A DNA stretch of 28,665 nucleotides. Source: a virus. Taxonomy: Duplodnaviria; Heunggongvirae; Uroviricota; Caudoviricetes. The position numbers and the translations under genes are program-made. The notes under the pieces were generated by a model, which saw only the letters and a list, made by a program, of their open reading frames with translations, searched no databases and was not told the origin of the DNA. Numbering within the stretch: the first letter of the stretch is position 1; each line of letters begins with the position of its first letter. Below are positions 4,834 through 27,134 of this stretch, one piece after another. Location of the stretch: IMG/VR virus record IMGVR_UViG_2740892282_000008; one strand, 5' to 3'.

Positions 4834-6291
4834 TTAGGAGCGCCAAAAAAAACCTGAAAACAATATAATAACAGGATAAATTTCAAGGCGACCAAGAATC
4901 ATAGCTATGCACATTAAACATTTTGCAATGTCATTAAGCACTCCGAATGACGATGCAGTAGCCCCAAAACCTAATCCCATATTATTAATACATGCAGCCA
5001 CTGTTGCAAATGATGTAAGAAAATCATATCCCATACCATTTAACACCAGTATAAAAAACACCGTGAAGAGAGTATAAAGAAAAAAGAAACTCCATACAGA
5101 CCTCATTACACGATCTGTAACTATCTTCCCTCCTACATTTACACTCAACAACGCTCTGGGATGAGAAAGCTGATTTATCTCGTGTTTGCTTTGTTTGAAA
5201 AGTATAAGAAATCGAAGTGACTTAATTCCACCACAAGTTGAACCTATACATCCCCCAAAGAAACTTGACAACAGCAAAAACACTATCGTGTGCGTGGGCC
5301 AACTTGCATAATCCTGCGTAGCTAAACCATTATCAGTGAGCATGGAGCTGGCAAGAAAAAACGAATGAATAAAACTTCCATGCAAGTCATACATACCTAT
5401 ATGCCAGACCTGGAAAGAGGTAACAATGATCACCCCTAAGGCTATTAACAGAAAGAAACGAAGTTCAATATCTCTGATTAAAGGTTTTATCGTTTTCCTG
5501 CTAATAACAATATACCAAAGAGTGAAGTTGAAAGCCGATAGCAGGGAAAAAGAACCAGCCACCAGCTCAACCAAATAGTTATTAAAATATCCGATACTCT
5601 CGCTATGAGTTGAGAAACCACCAAGCGAAACTGTGGAAATCCCGTGACAAATAGCATCAAACAAAGGCATTCCTGCAAGTCTATAACAGACAATACAAGC
5701 AATACCTAATAAAGAATAAGTTATCCACAGTGTCCGTGACGTATCGGCCAGGCGGGGAGTGAGTTTGTCATCCTTAAATGGCCCCGGCATTTCTGACTGA
5801 TAAAGCTTTGCACCACCAATACCCAATAATGGCAATACAGCAACCGCCAGAACAATAACTCCTAAACCACCTATAAAATTTAACTGTGACCGATAGTACA
5901 AATATGCCCGAGGTAATGAACTAACATCATCAATTACAGTTGCTCCTGTTGTTGTTATTCCAGAAACCCCTTCAAACAGAGCATCAATGAACGTTAAATT
6001 AAGTTCTGAGTCAATCCATAAAGGGAATGCACTAATAACAGAAAACAAAATCCAAAACATTACAATTATAATAAACCCATCACGGGTACGTAATTGAATG
6101 CCAGATTTCTTAGTTGTATACCACGCTCCGCCACCAATGCAAAAAAATATAACGAAAGTTATAAAGAAAACGAACAGGCTTTTTTCTTTATAAAACAATG
6201 CTACAACCATTGGTGGCAACATTGAAAGACTATAGAGCCAAACCAGGAACCCACACATATGAGTAACAACTCTTACATGAGATGTATTCAT
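4834..6291 (-). CDS. trkG: Trk-system potassium uptake protein TrkG (485 aa)
   Basis: Polytopic membrane protein whose sequence from MNTSHVRVVTHMCGFLVWLYSLS matches my recollection of Rac TrkG; conspicuously AT-rich relative to its neighbours. Confidence 0.9.
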   Translation of the reverse strand: MNTSHVRVVTHMCGFLVWLYSLSMLPPMVVALFYKEKSLFVFFITFVIFFCIGGGAWYTTKKSGIQLRTRDGFIIIVMFWILFSVISAFPLWIDSELNLTFIDALFEGVSGITTTGATVIDDVSSLPRAYLYYRSQLNFIGGLGVIVLAVAVLPLLGIGGAKLYQSEMPGPFKDDKLTPRLADTSRTLWITYSLLGIACIVCYRLAGMPLFDAICHGISTVSLGGFSTHSESIGYFNNYLVELVAGSFSLLSAFNFTLWYIVISRKTIKPLIRDIELRFFLLIALGVIIVTSFQVWHIGMYDLHGSFIHSFFLASSMLTDNGLATQDYASWPTHTIVFLLLSSFFGGCIGSTCGGIKSLRFLILFKQSKHEINQLSHPRALLSVNVGGKIVTDRVMRSVWSFFFLYTLFTVFFILVLNGMGYDFLTSFATVAACINNMGLGFGATASSFGVLNDIAKCLMCIAMILGRLEIYPVIILFSGFFWRS

Positions 6292-6428
6292 ATCTAAATA
6301 TTCTTTCAATTATAACCACCTTGCTGCAATATTATGATTATACTGTATAAAATTTAACTCCTCTTAGATCTTACTTCACTGTTCCTTATGAAACAATCAT
6401 CAAAATGAATCATATTGTAGTTAAGATT

Positions 6429-6893
6429 TTACTTTAAACACTGCTCGGTTATGTATTGCTGAGCACCTTCAAGTTGGGCCTGCATCATTACCAGTCGTTC
6501 CCGGAGGGTGAAATAATCCCGTTCAGCGGTGTCTGCCAGTCGGGGGGAGGCTGCATTATCCACGCCGGAGGCGGTGGTGGCTTCACGCACTGACTGACAG
6601 ACTGCTTTGATGTGCAACCGACGACGACCAGCGGCAACATCATCACGCAGAACATCATTTTCAGCTTTCGCATCAGCTAACTCCTTCGTGTATTTTGCAT
6701 CGAGCGCAGCAACATCACGCTGACGCATCTGCATGTCAGTAATTGCCGCGTTCGCCAGCTTCAGTTCTCTGGCATTTTTGTCGCGCTGTTCTTTGTAGGC
6801 GATGGCGTTATCACGGTAATGATTAACACCCCATGACAGGCAGACGACGATGCAGATAACCAGAGCGGAGATAATCGCGGTTACTCTGTTCAT
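6429..6893 (-). CDS. Rz: Spanin inner-membrane subunit Rz (i-spanin)
   Basis: N-terminal transmembrane segment plus coiled-coil periplasmic domain; ATG overlaps the R stop (ATGA); contains the embedded Rz1 frame. Confidence 0.85.
6488..6673 (-). CDS. Rz1: Spanin outer-membrane lipoprotein Rz1 (o-spanin), embedded in the +1 frame of Rz
   Basis: 61-aa ORF with lipoprotein signal and lipobox (LPLVVVGC), proline-rich mature part ([15 protein letters not shown]), strong AAGGAG RBS, entirely inside Rz. Confidence 0.8.
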
Positions 6894-7387
6894 TGCTGAC
6901 CCCACAAACAGATTTCACGCTCAATCTCACGACGAGTCATGAGACCTTTCCATTGCTTACCGCCAGCATATGTCCAGCGACGTAGCTGATCACATGCGCC
7001 TTTGATATCGCCCTGGTTTATTTTGCGAAGAAGCGTCGATGTTCTGAAATTGCCAGCACCCACGTTGTAAACGAATGAGTAAAGAGCGCCGCGCGTTGTT
7101 TCCGGTATATCGACTTTGATGTACGGGTTAATTTGTCTGGCGACCGTGGCAAGGTCTTTATTCAGGAGGGCTTTGCATTCTGCTTTGGTATACGTTTTAC
7201 CGAGCATGATGTCTTTTCCTGTATGCCCGTGACATACAGTCCATACACCAACAATATCTTTGTATGGTATGTAGCTGACACCTTCCAGACCATCGTTACC
7301 ACTTGGGCCAGTGATTAACACTGATGCTATAGCAATTGCTCCGCCACCAATAGCAGCAGCAACGACTTTTCGTAATGATGGAGGCAT
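6890..7387 (-). CDS. R: SAR endolysin (phage-21-type lysozyme R)
   Basis: 165 aa; N-terminal signal-anchor-release segment ([20 protein letters not shown]) followed by a lysozyme domain; close match to my recollection of phage 21 R; strong RBS. Confidence 0.9.
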
Positions 7388-7602
7388 TATTCACCTCTCG
7401 CAGCCTTGCGCTTATCTTCTTTAATCTTGAAATAAAGGTTTGTCAGGTACGTCAGCAGGCCAAATACCAGACTACCCAGCACACCGATTGCAGCCCACTG
7501 TGACGGAGTTACTCTATCGAGCAACTGTAAAAACCAGTAGCCAGCACTGCCTGCGGAGGTGCCGTAGGCAATGCCTGTTGAAATTTTGTCCATGGATTTC
7601 AT
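7387..7602 (-). CDS. S: Class II holin / pinholin (S21-like) with dual-start motif
   Basis: 71 aa starting [26 protein letters not shown]; two transmembrane segments; dual start Met1/Met4 (holin/antiholin); strong GGAGGTGA RBS; stop overlaps the R start. Confidence 0.85.
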
Positions 7603-7710
7603 AGCCTCACCTCCGTACGGAACGGATGGCATAGTTATTATGTGTAGGCTTTCAGACACATCAATCAGAGCCTTAATTGATATATATGCTGGAGACGATG
7701 CAATATAAAA

Positions 7711-7728
7711 AGCTCGCCGTAGCGAGCT
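7711..7728 (-). terminator. Rho-independent terminator closing the lipoprotein moron (minus strand)
   Basis: Stem agctcgc/gcgagct with loop cgta; on the minus strand it is followed by ttttatatt. Confidence 0.55.
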
Positions 7729-7853
7729 AATAAAATGTATTTCTCTGATATTATGTTTATTTGTATTAGCTCAGACTTGACATCACAGGTTTCGTATATA
7801 GAACATCATCAAATCTGTCAGTTTGCTATGAATGAGATATAGTAATTGAAGAG

Positions 7854-8249
7854 CTAACCTCGCATGTCAAAGCCAGATTTCTGAAAATCTCTGTAGACTT
7901 CCGGATTGTTGAAGGCCGGAAATTTGGCTTTATGAGCTGCGGACTTTATCGCTTCGCAATAGGCTTTATCACCGTTACTGGTAGATATTTTTAACGCCGT
8001 GCCATCCTGAGAGAATTCCATATGCAACCTGCATTTTTTCCCTTTCCAGTTATGCGGCTCATCAAGTTTGGCATTAATTGCAGCTCTGATTCCCCGCGCT
8101 TGCGCCCCCCATTCATCCTGATCATCCCAGCGTCCTGAACTGCAACTACCTGTAGCAGTAGTTTTGTGGCAATCTGAAGGGTGTAAAGGTGTGCATCCCG
8201 CAACAAAACCGACCCAAAAAGTCAACATAACGATTTTCTTTAATCCCAC
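7854..8249 (-). CDS. Lipoprotein with TolA domain-III-like C-terminal domain (paralogue B, 131 aa)
   Basis: GTG start with GAGGAG RBS; signal peptide plus lipobox (FVAGC); C-terminal ~80 aa share the K-C-L-M...G-L...C-EA...PA...EVY-F pattern with the neighbouring paralogue and with the TolA C-terminus. Confidence 0.7.
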   Translation of the reverse strand: MGLKKIVMLTFWVGFVAGCTPLHPSDCHKTTATGSCSSGRWDDQDEWGAQARGIRAAINAKLDEPHNWKGKKCRLHMEFSQDGTALKISTSNGDKAYCEAIKSAAHKAKFPAFNNPEVYRDFQKSGFDMRG

Positions 8250-8399
8250 TTCTTGCTCCTCAATCCATTAAAATCTCAGCAATAGTAGTTGTTACGTCCG
8301 CCACTGGCTCAGAGCTGACTATCCGCTAAATTTAGCTCAGTGCCGTAGCTGTGTCAGAACAAACCTAAGCCGAAACCGTTTATTACAAAACAATAAATA

Positions 8400-8828
8400 T
8401 CAGGGTTTAAAATCCAGCACCCCATTTTGAAATACTTTATATACTTCCGGCGAAGGGGGGGCAGGTATATCAGCATTCTTTATCGCATTCATCGCTTCAC
8501 GACATAAATCGAGGTCTCCACTTTCTCTTTTAACCTCCAGTAGAAGGCCATTCGGGGCCATATGCATTCTCAGTGTACACTCTTTTCCTGAATACTTACT
8601 CGCATCCCCGAACTGTTTTTCGATGGCGCTCTTGATTTGATGGGCATACAGACGGATATCCTCACTAACATCAGAAGTACGTTCAGATGAACTCACATAC
8701 TGTGTCTCTATTGCTTTATTGGAGTAATATGATGTACGGTCATGATAATTTGTCGATACAGCATCAGTGCACCCGATAATAATCCCACTAATAATCAACG
8801 TAAGAATTGATGCGCTACGAAAACCCAT
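8400..8828 (-). CDS. Lipoprotein with TolA domain-III-like C-terminal domain (paralogue A, 142 aa)
   Basis: Signal peptide plus lipobox (IIIGC); C-terminus YAHQIKSAIEKQFGDASKYSGKECTLRMHMAPNGLLLEVKRESGDLDLCREAMNAIKNADIPAPPSPEVYKVFQNGVLDFKP is strongly similar, from memory, to the C-terminal domain of E. coli TolA. Confidence 0.8.
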   Translation of the reverse strand: MGFRSASILTLIISGIIIGCTDAVSTNYHDRTSYYSNKAIETQYVSSSERTSDVSEDIRLYAHQIKSAIEKQFGDASKYSGKECTLRMHMAPNGLLLEVKRESGDLDLCREAMNAIKNADIPAPPSPEVYKVFQNGVLDFKP

Positions 8829-9762
8829 TTTTCCTCACATATGTCATATAGTAAAGGATTATATATACCGTTGTTTTGGACGCTCAAACAGCGAATCAGA
8901 TCAAATAAAACGCACATTTGTTAACATTTACACAAAGTCTGCGTGGGATATTCTGAAAGAATATCCATAATGTGGAGAGAATCTATTGAAGTGCATGGTG
9001 CCGGGTGCCTCCCGGTGAACAAAATGTTCGTGATACCTGTCGGCGACAGAAAAGGTTAATGGTATCACCCCACCGCACAGGGGGATTCACCATGCAGGAG
9101 TTTTCTTAGCAAACTCACTGCGCGCCCGGCAACTCCCAACCACATAAAATGCGGAGTTTGTGGTATTTATGCATATAACTCGCAGGAATTATCTTAAAAA
9201 ACTGATGTCGATCCGGATTAAAAAGAAGCAGGTCATCATCAGATGACTGGAAAAAAGGAAAACAAAAAATACTCATCATACAGTTTTGATTGCAGGGATG
9301 AGCCTGCTATGCACAATATGCAGAATATAAGCAAGATAAAAATATGCAGGCATATTATTTCGGATTTTGTTATTAACACAACCTTTTTAATAATCATTTG
9401 GCATACAATAAACCAGCCCAAAAAGAACCGCCTAAACAGGCGGTTGGTCAATACAAAGGATGCTTCGTCTTTATTATAGTAATCTGAGGCGTCGGGTGTC
9501 TTGTATCAGACAACATATTGTCCCGCTAAACAGCGAATTACAAACCACCCTGCAATGATCTCTCATCTCATTTTATATGAGTTGACGACATCAGGATAAC
9601 GCATCATCAGCCCCTGCCAAGAAATATCAAAACTCCCGCCAGCAATGTGTTATCACAATATTGTAAAAAAAACACAGCACCGAAACTATAACTGGTCTCT
9701 GTTATAATTTGGAGCAGAAAGACCAGTTGCCCAACTAGCAGCATTCTCCCCTGCTTTCCTGA

Positions 9763-9795
9763 CGTAAAAAAACCGCATTAAGCGGTTTTTTTACG
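9763..9795. terminator. Strong bidirectional rho-independent terminator ~80 nt downstream of the Q-position gene (tR'-like or end of the early operon)
   Basis: Perfect 14-bp inverted repeat cgtaaaaaaaccgc / gcggtttttttacg with 5-nt loop; A/T runs on both sides. Confidence 0.75.
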
Positions 9796-9872
9796 ATGTC
9801 CATGTCTGCAATCCGCCTCGCGATACAGCTTTGCGAAGCATAGCAAAATTGAAGCAGTTTATACGTAAGAAA

Positions 9873-10415
9873 TCAAGCCATTTTCTCAGCAAATGATTCA
9901 CGCATGGGAATATATAGGGCATACTCAGCAACAGCTAACCAATTAGCAATCCGTTTTTCGCATGTGCTAAAACACCACTCTGGGTGTGCATCATTTAGCA
10001 ATTCAGCCATTTTGCGCTTAGTCATCCCCCGCCCTTCATAGCGTTGCCGGAGAATGCAAATCAATCCTGGATGCTCTGCCAGCACCTCACTTATGACTCG
10101 ATCAATACATAACGCCTCTGCATCAGTACAATGCGCCAGCCAGCTCTTTTGCTTGCCGTTGATCATCTCTCGCAAAAACGCTTCCAGCTCAGCTTTCTCT
10201 ATTCCCGCTTTTTTCATTCTGCGCAGGGCTTCATTAATGGCTGTTTTCGTCAGTTTTTTGGATGCCAACAACTGATTGAACATATTCCCTGACCTGCCAC
10301 CGCCAATATACGACCAGCGCCCCCACATACGTAGTTTTCCCTGAATCCAGACACTTTCCAGCGTGGTGAGGCGAAGGTGTTCTCCGCTTTTTCCTGTATT
10401 CGTTGGGTAAATCAT
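9873..10415 (-). CDS. Putative late-gene antiterminator (Q-like), assigned mainly by position
   Basis: 180-aa ORF, last gene of the early-right operon, translationally coupled (ATGA) to the upstream gene, immediately upstream of a strong terminator and the lysis cassette. Sequence identity to a named Q family not confirmed. Confidence 0.45.
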   Translation of the reverse strand: MIYPTNTGKSGEHLRLTTLESVWIQGKLRMWGRWSYIGGGRSGNMFNQLLASKKLTKTAINEALRRMKKAGIEKAELEAFLREMINGKQKSWLAHCTDAEALCIDRVISEVLAEHPGLICILRQRYEGRGMTKRKMAELLNDAHPEWCFSTCEKRIANWLAVAEYALYIPMRESFAEKMA

Positions 10416-11769: not shown

Positions 11770-11925
11770 TTACTCCTCAGGTTCGTAAGCTGTGAAGACA
11801 GCGACCTCCGTCTGACCGGTTCGGATTCGCACCTCGCAGAGGTCTTTCCTCGTTACCAGTGCCGTCACTATGACGGTTAAACAGATGACAATCAGTGCGA
11901 CTAACATCGCCTTTTGCTGCTTCAT
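11770..11925 (-). CDS. hok: Hok-family type I toxin (51 aa); in-frame mok-like extension to 11982
   Basis: MKQQKAMLVALIVICLTVIVTALVTRKDLCEVRIRTGQTEVAVFTAYEPEE is near-identical to my recollection of HokD; AAGGAG RBS; upstream in-frame ATG at 11982 gives a 70-aa mok-like ORF; 9-bp hairpin ggcgaggga/tccctcgcc just 3' of the stop. Confidence 0.85.
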   Translation of the reverse strand: MKQQKAMLVALIVICLTVIVTALVTRKDLCEVRIRTGQTEVAVFTAYEPEE

Positions 11926-12136
11926 AGCCTGCTTCTCCTTGCCTTCCGGCGCGTAAGAGGCTAACCTACATGTGCAAAGCATGAAATTGGCCTCAGATTA
12001 ATGTTAAGCGTCTTGCCGGACGCGTAATGTTATCTGGGGCTTTTCTCTATCTGCCTTTGGTGTTCATGCCTGAGGCAGATAGCCTCAAGCACCCGCAGCA
12101 ATTCTACTTAACTCCCGTCACCTCGCCAATATAAAA

Positions 12137-14549: not shown

Positions 14550-15427
14550 GCCATCTGAGCCATCTGCGAACGTTTCTTGAGGCCTATCGCTCTGGCTCCT
14601 TTTCAAAGGCGGCAGAACTACTGGGCATCACTCAGCCCGCGGCGTCACAGCATATCCAGTCTCTTGAGACTCTGGTTGGTAAGCGTCTGTTTATCAGGCA
14701 GGCCAGAGGCGTGACGGCAACCGAAGCTGCGGATGAGCTTGCCCGCTCAGTTTCACCCTTCATTGATGGTCTGGAAGAAAAGCTGTCCTCTTTCCGGTCA
14801 GGCTCTGTACGCGGGGGAACAATTAATCTGGCAGGACCGCCAGATTTTATTCATTCCCGGCTTGGGACAGTAATGGCTCCACTAATGAAGGAGGGGTATC
14901 GCCTACGCTTTCATACCGGCAATAAGCAACGTATTTATTCCCTTTTGCATGACGGGAGCGCCGATCTCGCTGTTACCGCATCTATGCCTGATGACCGTCT
15001 GTACGGCTATGCACATCTACTGACTGAACGCATGCTCCTTGTTCATGCTCCCGCCATGTCAGAGATCATCGGATCAGAACCTGGTGCTGAAACGCTTGCC
15101 TCATTACCGCTGATTGCTTATGACGAAGAGTTGCCACTGATTAGAGCGCTCTGGGCCTCCATGTTTCAGAGAGCCCCTGAGATGCAGGCTACATTCACCA
15201 TTCCGGATTTACGTATTATCCGCGACTTGGTCTGTGACGGCCACGGGTGGACAGTGCTGCCGGATTATCACTGTGACAATGACCTGAAAAGTGGTCGCCT
15301 GATTTCAGTGACACCTGCAGACCTCGCTCCGACTAATCATCTTTATCTGGTCTGGAACAAAAGGACGGCTAATAACAGCCGAACCGCCTATGTTCGGGAT
15401 TACATTCTTAAAACGTTTCCGCGTTGA
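14546..15427 (+). CDS. LysR-type transcriptional regulator (293 aa)
   Basis: N-terminal LysR HTH (LRTFLEAYRSGSFSKAAELLGITQPAASQHIQSLE) and C-terminal substrate-binding-like domain; ATGA overlap with the ChaC-like gene. Confidence 0.85.
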   Translation: MSHLSHLRTFLEAYRSGSFSKAAELLGITQPAASQHIQSLETLVGKRLFIRQARGVTATEAADELARSVSPFIDGLEEKLSSFRSGSVRGGTINLAGPPDFIHSRLGTVMAPLMKEGYRLRFHTGNKQRIYSLLHDGSADLAVTASMPDDRLYGYAHLLTERMLLVHAPAMSEIIGSEPGAETLASLPLIAYDEELPLIRALWASMFQRAPEMQATFTIPDLRIIRDLVCDGHGWTVLPDYHCDNDLKSGRLISVTPADLAPTNHLYLVWNKRTANNSRTAYVRDYILKTFPR

Positions 15428-26737: not shown

Positions 26738-26932
26738 ATGAGATATGACAATGTTAAACCATGTCCATTTTGTGGTTGTCCATCAGTAACGGTGAAAGCC
26801 ATTTCAGGATATTACCGAGCGAAGTGTAACGGATGTGAATCCCGAACCGGTTATGGTGGAAGTGAAAAAGAAGCACTCGAAAGATGGAATAAACGAACCA
26901 CTGGAAATAATAATGGAGGTGTTCATGTATAA
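26738..26932 (+). CDS. ralR: Restriction alleviation protein / type I toxin RalR (Lar, 64 aa)
   Basis: MRYDNVKPCPFCGCPSVTVKAISGYYRAKCNGCESRTGYGGSEKEALERWNKRTTGNNNGGVHV matches my recollection of Rac RalR. Confidence 0.8.
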   Translation: MRYDNVKPCPFCGCPSVTVKAISGYYRAKCNGCESRTGYGGSEKEALERWNKRTTGNNNGGVHV

Positions 26933-27134
26933 AATTACCGCCACTATTGAAAAGGAAGGTGGCACTCCTACTAACTGGACAAGATATTCAAAATCTAAAC
27001 TAACGAAATCAGAATGCGAAAAAATGCTCTCAGGTAAAAAAGAAGCAGGCGTTTCCAGAGAGCAGAAAGTAAAACTGATAAATTTTAATTGCGAGAAACT
27101 TCAGTCCTCGAGAATTGCATTGTATTCAAATTAA
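26925..27134 (+). CDS. ydaC: YdaC (69 aa)
   Basis: ATG with GGAGGTG RBS, overlapping the ralR stop by 8 nt; MYKITATIEKEGGTPTNWTRYSKSKLTKSECEKMLSGKK... Confidence 0.75.
   Translation: MYKITATIEKEGGTPTNWTRYSKSKLTKSECEKMLSGKKEAGVSREQKVKLINFNCEKLQSSRIALYSN

Follow-up and report, generated by a model that had tools for sequence, protein, structure and literature searches.

The window analysed here is a 28,665-nucleotide (nt) stretch of DNA (IMG/VR record IMGVR_UViG_2740892282_000008) whose sieB, ydaT, trkG, hokD/sok and RalA genes mark it as a Rac-type prophage. In its late region, between the gene in the Q position and the holin gene (the Q-S slot), two small genes lie on the minus strand: ORF A (8400..8828; 142 amino acids) and ORF B (7854..8249; 131 amino acids). 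Each is supported by an open reading frame (ORF) call, a ribosome-binding site (RBS), a match to Pfam family PF06519 and an AlphaFold2 (AF2) model. A first-pass annotation, made from the sequence alone, had placed two lipoprotein genes here and likened the C-termini of their products to domain III of TolA (TolAIII); both reading frames were confirmed on the minus strand. From their sequences, A and B belong to two lineages of a large family of stand-alone lipoproteins with a TolAIII domain in Enterobacterales.

ORF A starts at an ATG preceded by tGAGGAaaaATG (GAGGA), and its N-terminus, MGFRSASILTLIISGIIIGC-T, comprises a signal peptide (residues 1-19) with R4 in the n-region, the lipobox IIGC, Cys20 and Thr at +2. 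A low-confidence tether (~21-53) and the TolA domain III (~54-142) follow. ORF B starts at a GTG preceded by GAGGAGcaagaaGTG (GAGGAG); its N-terminus, MGLKKIVMLTFWVGFVAGC-T, has K4 and K5 in the n-region, the lipobox VAGC, Cys19 and Thr at +2, and is followed by a conserved Cys-rich segment (20-40) and the TolA domain III (~41-130). Lipoprotein signals were defined by the motif [LVI][ASTVI][GAS]C, a positive n-region, a hydrophobic core and a residue other than Asp at +2. By this definition both proteins have canonical lipoprotein signal peptides, as had been proposed, and so do the plasmid lineages described below (LTAC, MTAC, ITAC). Under the established Lol sorting rule, a lipoprotein with a non-Asp residue at +2 goes to the outer membrane, and A and B are accordingly predicted to be placed there. 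The mature N-terminus of B, C-x-PLHPS-x-CHKTTA-x-GSCSSGRWDDQDEWG, contains two extra cysteines, and segment 20-40 looks like a functional element and not a simple linker. The conserved SSGRWDDQDEWG of B, which AF2 puts at the start of helix 1, was considered as a colicin-type TolB box. This candidate was dropped, as in a comparison by eye neither the Trp spacing nor the DGSGW core fitted the ColE9 epitope.

Automatic annotation departs from both reading frames. For B, the NCBI Prokaryotic Genome Annotation Pipeline (PGAP) chose an internal ATG (124 amino acids), whereas the GTG start restores the Lys-Lys n-region. For A, the PGAP/RefSeq label is a tolA pseudogene, 'incomplete, missing N-terminus', that covers the last 87 codons only (14801-15061 of related locus L001; 3501-3761 of L016-L018). 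Judged by its RBS, signal peptide and lipobox, A is an intact, real gene hidden by this call, which probably explains its poor representation in protein databases.

The resemblance to TolAIII was evident in sequence, profile and fold. Against PF06519 (TolA C-terminal; gathering cut-off 25 bits), A scored 82.6 bits (E 2.3e-23) and B 54.6 bits (E 1.3e-14), and a Pfam scan of the two proteins returned TolA/TonB-family matches only. The solved E. coli TolAIII chains 1s62, 3qdp, 2x9a and 1tol matched A with E ~1e-28. By BLASTP, A is identical to E. coli TolA 336-421 at 52 of 86 positions (60%; E 8e-34), at the upper end of the roughly 50-60% first estimated, and B is identical to TolAIII at 26 of 77 positions (34%; E 4e-12); A and B share 29%. 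The greater divergence of the 131-residue protein on the same cysteine skeleton had also been recognised, and both cysteines of the disulfide pair C363-C388 are invariant in our alignment, A and B included. AF2 models, built on a 15-sequence alignment, reached a pLDDT of ~90 over the domain in both proteins and fell below 50 over the signal peptide and tether. The low-confidence stretch runs from the N-terminus to residue 52 in A and to residue 39 in B, leaving a tether of 20-33 residues. The confident part has the order alpha-beta-beta-alpha-alpha-beta. Foldseek placed A on 2x9a_B (TolAIII of the IF1 g3p complex) with a root-mean-square deviation (rmsd) of 0.6 A over 88 columns (TM 0.96) and B on 3qdp with an rmsd of 1.1 A over 86 columns (TM 0.93). 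Alignment and fold prediction, the checks put forward together with the TolAIII claim, have thus confirmed it.

Both proteins also matched PHROG 5772 over their full length (A, E 1.6e-62; B, E 6.7e-65). The models of full-length TolA fitted them poorly: NF007065 (cut-off 213) gave 108 bits for A and 53.7 bits for B, neither of which passes, and TIGR02794 (cut-off 59.45) gave 75.8 for A, a nominal pass over positions 261-362 only, and 47.2 for B, which fails. Judging from the missing membrane anchor, the missing helical domain II and a location outside the tol-pal operon, neither A nor B is TolA proper.

The two genes are bracketed by signals of their own. A sigma-70-like promoter candidate, TTGAGC-18-TATAAT (8858..8887, minus strand), matches the consensus at 10/12 positions and lies 30 nt 5' of the A ATG; the promoter scan of the region found 11 sites where 7.1 were expected by chance. 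On the other side, an intrinsic terminator (7711..7728, minus strand) with a 7-bp stem of five GC pairs and a T-run (dG -13 kcal/mol, z -3.3) stands 126 nt past the B stop codon, upstream of the holin gene, where the first-pass annotation had seen it. That annotation let the unit run from 7711 to 8828; the terminator end holds, whereas the 5' end must be extended to the promoter-like site at 8887..8858. The AT-rich leader that it described was also found (GC 0.36 at 8700-8999). As read from the sequence, the unit has the architecture of a moron: a promoter-like site is followed by two genes and then by a terminator that precedes the holin gene. The cassette has its own terminator, occurs behind two different Q modules, and contains a B gene whose homology to other copies breaks at the gene borders. 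Flanking signals and gene context confirm that the cassette is a self-contained insertion between Q and S of a lambdoid prophage, as had been proposed.

Downstream of the cassette on the minus strand is a lysis cassette, which begins with a P21-type holin gene, essD (7387..7602; PF04971 E 4.4e-35; 216 nt in PGAP), and continues with the lysozyme gene rrrD (6890-7387; PF00959 E 1.3e-45) and, 3' of both, the spanin pair Rz (6429-6905) and Rz1 (6488-6673). We considered whether A or B might be an extra spanin or lysis lipoprotein; this is unlikely, as Rz and Rz1 are already present and B-type genes also occur without lysis genes. On the other side of the cassette, the Q-position gene (9873..10415, minus strand) encodes a DUF1133 protein (PF06576 E 2.5e-107) with weak similarity to antiterminator Q (PF06530 E 8.6e-6). 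The strong terminator reported after this gene is probably the hairpin with a U-run at 9763..9795 (minus strand; dG -19.7 kcal/mol, z -4.9), ~80 nt past the gene. A second terminator-like site in the gap between Q and A (9426..9445, minus strand; dG -14.3 kcal/mol) has a weak z of -1.4 and is a candidate tR'. No tRNA genes were found in the window, including the Q-S gap, whereas other carriers of the A+B cassette have tRNA-Ile and tRNA-Arg in that gap.

The two genes had been called paralogues. They are homologous, yet neither recent paralogues nor tandem duplicates: over the domain alone, A is 59% identical to host TolA and 28% identical to B, and the DNA homology of B to plasmid and chromosomal copies covers only the coding sequence and RBS (window 7851-8286). 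On these two grounds tandem duplication was rejected. The description of the genes as prophage-encoded stands insofar as they lie in a prophage late region; they are not phage-specific, given that B-type genes also occur on plasmids and chromosomes. B-type proteins are 79-89% identical across Citrobacter, Enterobacter, Klebsiella, Raoultella, Serratia and Shigella. They occur as a single chromosomal gene and also at the edge of a decayed prophage, and ~600 PLSDB plasmid records hold a B-type copy at ~88% identity. On the plasmids inspected, which are I-complex-type conjugative plasmids (IncI1/B/O or MPF_I), the B-type gene lies directly downstream of the relaxase gene nikB (pHUSEC41-1, L009 6965-7396; L010 2877-3308). 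On pO157 it is intact beside toxB although nikB is a frameshifted pseudogene (L015 5001-5432).

A third lineage, which we call C, is found on Klebsiella plasmids, among them MPF_F conjugative plasmids, and is lipoprotein-anchored too. On a 6.2-kb Col-type plasmid of K. oxytoca, the C-type gene is immediately downstream of a gene for an Exc2-family entry-exclusion lipoprotein (L012 1518-2441), and further genes of that plasmid are those for a putative bacteriocin with a lysozyme domain, a candidate immunity protein and a colicin-release lysis protein (L012 4314-5859). On 10,060-bp mobilisable ColRNAI plasmids of Klebsiella (L011 969-1702), a gene for a TolAIII lipoprotein of 123 amino acids overlaps by 4 nt a gene for an exported, stand-alone TonB C-terminal domain (TonB-CTD; 121 amino acids; PF03544 E 9e-11). 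An exhaustive profile search returned 578 cluster representatives of the TolAIII family. Among the best 150 of these, 80 are 100-175 amino acids long, and at least 58 of the 80 have a lipobox. Ten of these clusters that were looked up had named members from Serratia, Dryocola, Klebsiella, Kosakonia and Salmonella, all labelled 'TolA' by homology. The lipobox Cys and the disulfide cysteines of the domain are conserved in all lineages of the alignment.

Of 5426 complete E. coli genomes surveyed for carriage, 450 have 80% or more of window 7600-9900. The A gene is in 898 (almost always chromosomal) and the B gene in 1269 (826 chromosomal and 536 plasmid places), or 16% and 23% of the genomes, respectively. 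Copies with an identity of 99% or above occur in 781 records for A and 784 for B, and on viral contigs a 99% copy of A is always followed by a 99% copy of B at a fixed spacing. The near-equal counts and the fixed spacing show that A and B travel together as one cassette. This cassette is also found behind a different, 21/Qin-type Q with tRNA-Ile and tRNA-Arg. A variant of A alone (80% nucleotide and 65-73% protein identity) lies between tRNA genes downstream of Q and nanS-p at two further loci (L014 4001-4429; L057 4001-4429). In L014 it follows Q, a methyltransferase gene, tRNA-Ile and tRNA-Arg and precedes nanS-p, the stretch covered ending before the holin; in L057, nanS-p and a holin lie downstream. 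This is the slot in which Stx phages carry stx.

Just 1 of 50,697 phage records contains A or B, namely mEp460_ev081 (LR597641, 3891-5625). Its name suggests an evolved derivative of mEp460, and it may have gained the region from a resident prophage by recombination. The flanks of its cassette resemble Qin-type late and cold-shock genes (cspG, gnsB). Its identity to the window exceeds 99% up to 9019 and ends at 9116. Position 9019 is inside a match to the STnc100 small RNA family in the leader 5' of A (8939..9125, minus strand; Rfam 86.6 bits, gathering score 47). The STnc100 element may have served as a recombination linker, with the similarity to mEp460_ev081 falling off inside it. Pieces of the same element (window 8992-9116) form at least 7 repeats in the late region of a Stx-like prophage (L014 1000-3882).

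Selection differs between the two genes. The ratio of nonsynonymous to synonymous substitution (dN/dS) is 0.05-0.14 for the B domain and 0.03-0.11 for its Cys-rich segment 20-40; A is less constrained, at 0.27 for the domain and 0.39 for the tether.

The known ligands of TolAIII use two edges of the domain. The N1 domain of g3p, colicin N and the TolB N-terminus each add a strand to beta3 (A415-K420), and D418P or K420P in TolA abolishes binding of all three (PMC4339652). Affinities are ~1 uM for colicin N and ~40 uM for TolB (PMC4339652; PMC7391070). The edge on the other side (L375-P380) is where colicin A binds, making cation-pi contacts with K368, K379 and K396 (PMC3365938). In the alignment, beta3 of A (LDFKP) is identical to TolA 417-421, including D418 and K420; at the colicin A site A has LLEVKR, with K379 and K396 kept and K368 replaced by His. 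In B, beta3 is FDMRG, which is conservative relative to TolA, and D418 is invariant throughout the alignment. These residues predict that A could bind all known TolAIII ligands and B only the beta3 set. Across the 58 aligned lipobox-bearing representatives, D418 is conserved in 71% and F419 in 84%, and beta3 is as conserved as in full-length TolAs, a comparison that is supportive but weak, being confounded by the different taxon sampling of the short and full-length sets.

The reading that we favour, at slightly under an even chance, is that A and B are outer-membrane-tethered decoys that catch ligands of the TolA beta3 edge and give tolerance to Tol-dependent colicins and filamentous phages. 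It builds on the gene structure, lipoprotein signals, fold, binding edges and mobile-element distribution described above; the localisation, expression in the lysogen, binding and phenotype are its predictions. In the lysogen, transcription of the cassette would start at its own promoter and end at its own terminator, short of the holin gene. The position of the terminator between B and the holin gene argues for transcription in the lysogen, as transcripts arising within the cassette would otherwise run into the holin gene. Each protein would present a copy of TolAIII on a short tether at the periplasmic side of the outer membrane, the place at which the translocation domains of colicins and g3p-N1 would enter the periplasm. 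Invaders would dock by beta-strand addition on the beta3 edge of the decoy, and in the case of A on the beta2 edge as well. They would then be held on a domain uncoupled from TolQR and the proton motive force, import would stall, and the cell would be tolerant to Tol-dependent colicins and other bacteriocins and to Ff/If1-type phages. Given the difference between ~1 uM for an invader and ~40 uM for TolB, moderate decoy levels could be enough to sequester invaders and yet have little effect on Tol-Pal.

Carriage of the family by plasmids with I-type and F-type conjugation systems, its presence on a bacteriocin plasmid and its pairing with TonB-CTD are consistent with a decoy function. The moron architecture and the selection data, with dN/dS at 0.05-0.14 for the B domain and 0.27 for the A domain and the lipobox Cys kept in all lineages, also count in its favour. 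Phages of the If1 and Ff types, which use TolAIII through their g3p, have I-type and F-type pili as receptors, and the role that the C-terminal domains of TolA and TonB most obviously share is that of periplasmic hubs hijacked by colicins and phages. Levengood-Freyermuth, Click and Webster are said to have found in 1993 that overproduction of periplasmic TolAIII made cells tolerant to group A colicins and f1, and in the work of Howard and colleagues in 2001 a periplasmic TonB-CTD reportedly blocked FhuA and FecA transport. More broadly, we tentatively raise the possibility that C-terminal domains of TolA, and in at least one case of TonB, are regular cargo of mobile elements in Enterobacterales, where they would serve, lipid-anchored or exported, as receptor decoys; the elements concerned are lambdoid prophages, conjugative plasmids of the I-complex and F types, pO157 and small Col-type plasmids. 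These decoys would form a widespread and so far unrecognised defence class directed at bacteriocins and at filamentous phages that depend on pili, in which the A and B lineages cover different ligand sets; such a division would explain why one prophage carries both.

Several observations weigh against a decoy function. The promoter candidate at 8887..8858 rests on a consensus match only. None of the three lysines at the colicin A site is kept in B (K368E, K379S and K396H), which has ALKIST at this edge. B is 31% identical to TolAIII, yet it is 79-89% conserved across genera, Cys-rich segment included, and such strong purifying selection despite low identity to TolAIII suggests a conserved partner of its own and not an arms race. 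The Enterobacter B gene is a single chromosomal gene away from obvious mobile elements. The ~780 near-identical copies of the cassette are largely one inherited Rac-type prophage, so that their conservation says little about selection. Lastly, A should also bind the TolB N-terminus, its beta3 being identical to that of TolA, and competition with the real TolA could damage the envelope.

The main rival, which we consider unlikely but worth weighing, starts from this last point. A tethered TolAIII could bind the TolB N-terminus or another native partner such as CpoB, damp Pal mobilisation and loosen the outer membrane, so that A and B would be modulators of Tol-Pal. Such loosening might pay through higher vesicle production, readier release of phage or bacteriocin, assistance with lysis once the late operon is on, or envelope remodelling in conjugation. 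The location of the cassette in the late operon, directly before the holin gene, would suit such a role, as would the C-type copy that shares its plasmid with genes for a bacteriocin and for colicin-release lysis, and the strong purifying selection on B fits a conserved host partner. Overproduction of TolAIII reportedly made cells leak periplasmic proteins, in the hands of Levengood-Freyermuth in 1993 and of Wan and Baneyx in 1998. The TolB-binding strand of TolA (PMC4339652) is present unchanged in A, and a review holds that vesicle production could be regulated via the TolB-TolA or TolB-Pal contacts (PMC7391070). Against this, the terminator and the promoter-like site indicate expression in the lysogen, where a chronically leaky envelope would be costly, and 16-23% of complete E. 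coli genomes have the genes. Lysis is already served by spanins, and a role specific to Tol-Pal leaves the pairing with an exported TonB-CTD unexplained. The contact to be disturbed is also weak, the TolA-TolB affinity being ~40 uM as opposed to ~1 uM for invader binding (PMC4339652).

A second alternative is that the proteins act in recipient cells as factors that exclude incoming DNA, as Exc and TraT do, and that the link to Tol is incidental. The B-type gene follows nikB on the inspected I-complex-type plasmids and persists on pO157 despite the nikB pseudogene, and the C-type copy adjoins an Exc2-family entry-exclusion lipoprotein. Prophage and chromosomal copies, on the other hand, have no transfer genes nearby, I-complex plasmids already have a dedicated ExcA/TraY exclusion system, and we know of no role of TolA domain III in conjugative entry; we regard this alternative as improbable. 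It is very hard to credit that the genes are decayed, functionless fragments of a captured tolA, as in RefSeq, even with A annotated as lacking its N-terminus and the carrier prophage partly degraded: the reading frames are intact, none of the Shine-Dalgarno sequence, signal peptide and lipobox derives from tolA, the lipobox and disulfide cysteines are kept in all lineages, dN/dS is well below 1, and short lipobox-bearing proteins are common in the family (80 of the best 150 representatives are 100-175 amino acids long, at least 58 of them with a lipobox). On the intact frame, the conserved lipobox and domain cysteines and the dN/dS values, the assignment of A as a pseudogene was rejected.

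The rest of the window showed further features of this prophage, which is partly degraded, with a terminase pseudogene. The trkG gene lies between the lysis cassette and the head genes (4834-6309). A block of non-phage cargo (12646-18902) separates the hok/sok region from the replication and immunity genes and encodes two transporters (MFS and BCCT), a gamma-glutamylcyclotransferase, a LysR regulator and a DUF2254 protein; at the edge of this block, the related locus L001 has an IS1 copy. Small RNAs in the window are the sok antitoxin RNA with hokD (11920-12094), the RalA antitoxin RNA (26931-27109) and an IS009 RNA-family match (510-708).

If A and B are decoys, sensitivity to Tol-dependent colicins and filamentous phages would be modified by genes present in roughly every fifth E. 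coli genome, on pO157, on many resistance plasmids of the I complex and on common plasmids of Klebsiella. This would bear on colicin ecology in the gut, on colicin- and pyocin-like antimicrobials, on the design of therapy with plasmid-dependent phages and on phage-display hosts. The family would offer a natural set of TolAIII variants that separates invader binding from TolB binding, and copying the co-receptor would join the known exclusion routes of mobile elements. If they instead modulate Tol-Pal, they would be, to our knowledge, the first natural regulators of the TolA-TolB force-transduction step, linked to vesicles and lysis. On either reading, A is a real gene that RefSeq masks as a pseudogene.

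What is already known of these proteins is the domain similarity, which is present in automatic annotation ('TolA C-terminal domain-containing protein', with the GO term 'bacteriocin transport'). A full-text literature search found no published work on the function of prophage or plasmid lipoprotein-TolAIII proteins, PADLOC gave no hit for A or B, and PHROGs lists 'unknown function' only, in agreement with the earlier statement that no system of this kind had been characterised. The nearest relative is E. coli TolA domain III itself (~330-421; 1S62, 3QDP, 1TOL, 2X9A, 3QDR), with which A and B share the fold, the disulfide pair and the beta3 edge strand. Unlike TolA, they have neither domain I nor the long helical domain II, and hence no link to TolQR and the proton motive force; they are predicted to be lipid-anchored in the outer and not the inner membrane, and are encoded outside the tol-pal operon on mobile elements. 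Laboratory overproduction of TolAIII reportedly works by the mechanism proposed here, a free periplasmic domain competing with native TolA. That construct is soluble and overexpressed and makes cells leaky, whereas A and B are natural, lipid-tethered by prediction, diverged from host TolA and presumably present at a low level.

Among elements of mobile DNA, the Q-S morons (stx; nmpC of DLP12 and the lc porin of PA-2; with bor and lom elsewhere in lambda) share with A and B the late-operon slot, a terminator of their own (A and B also having a candidate promoter), patchy presence and envelope-directed products; they differ in cargo, and the gene family of A and B is shared with plasmids and chromosomes. 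Boeke, Model and Zinder reportedly described in 1982 superinfection immunity mediated by Ff g3p, together with colicin tolerance. There too a mobile element blocks the TolA step, in mirror image: g3p is a ligand that occupies TolA, while A and B would be extra copies of the receptor. Llp of T5 and Cor of phi80, N15 and mEp167 are likewise small outer-membrane lipoproteins of phages; they shut FhuA, a way in for both phages and colicins. They bind and inactivate the receptor itself, whereas A and B would mimic a periplasmic co-receptor and titrate the invader. Lipoproteins of mobile elements that close an entry route are thus known (Llp, Cor and TraT), and doing so by copying a periplasmic co-receptor domain would be a new variation on this theme.

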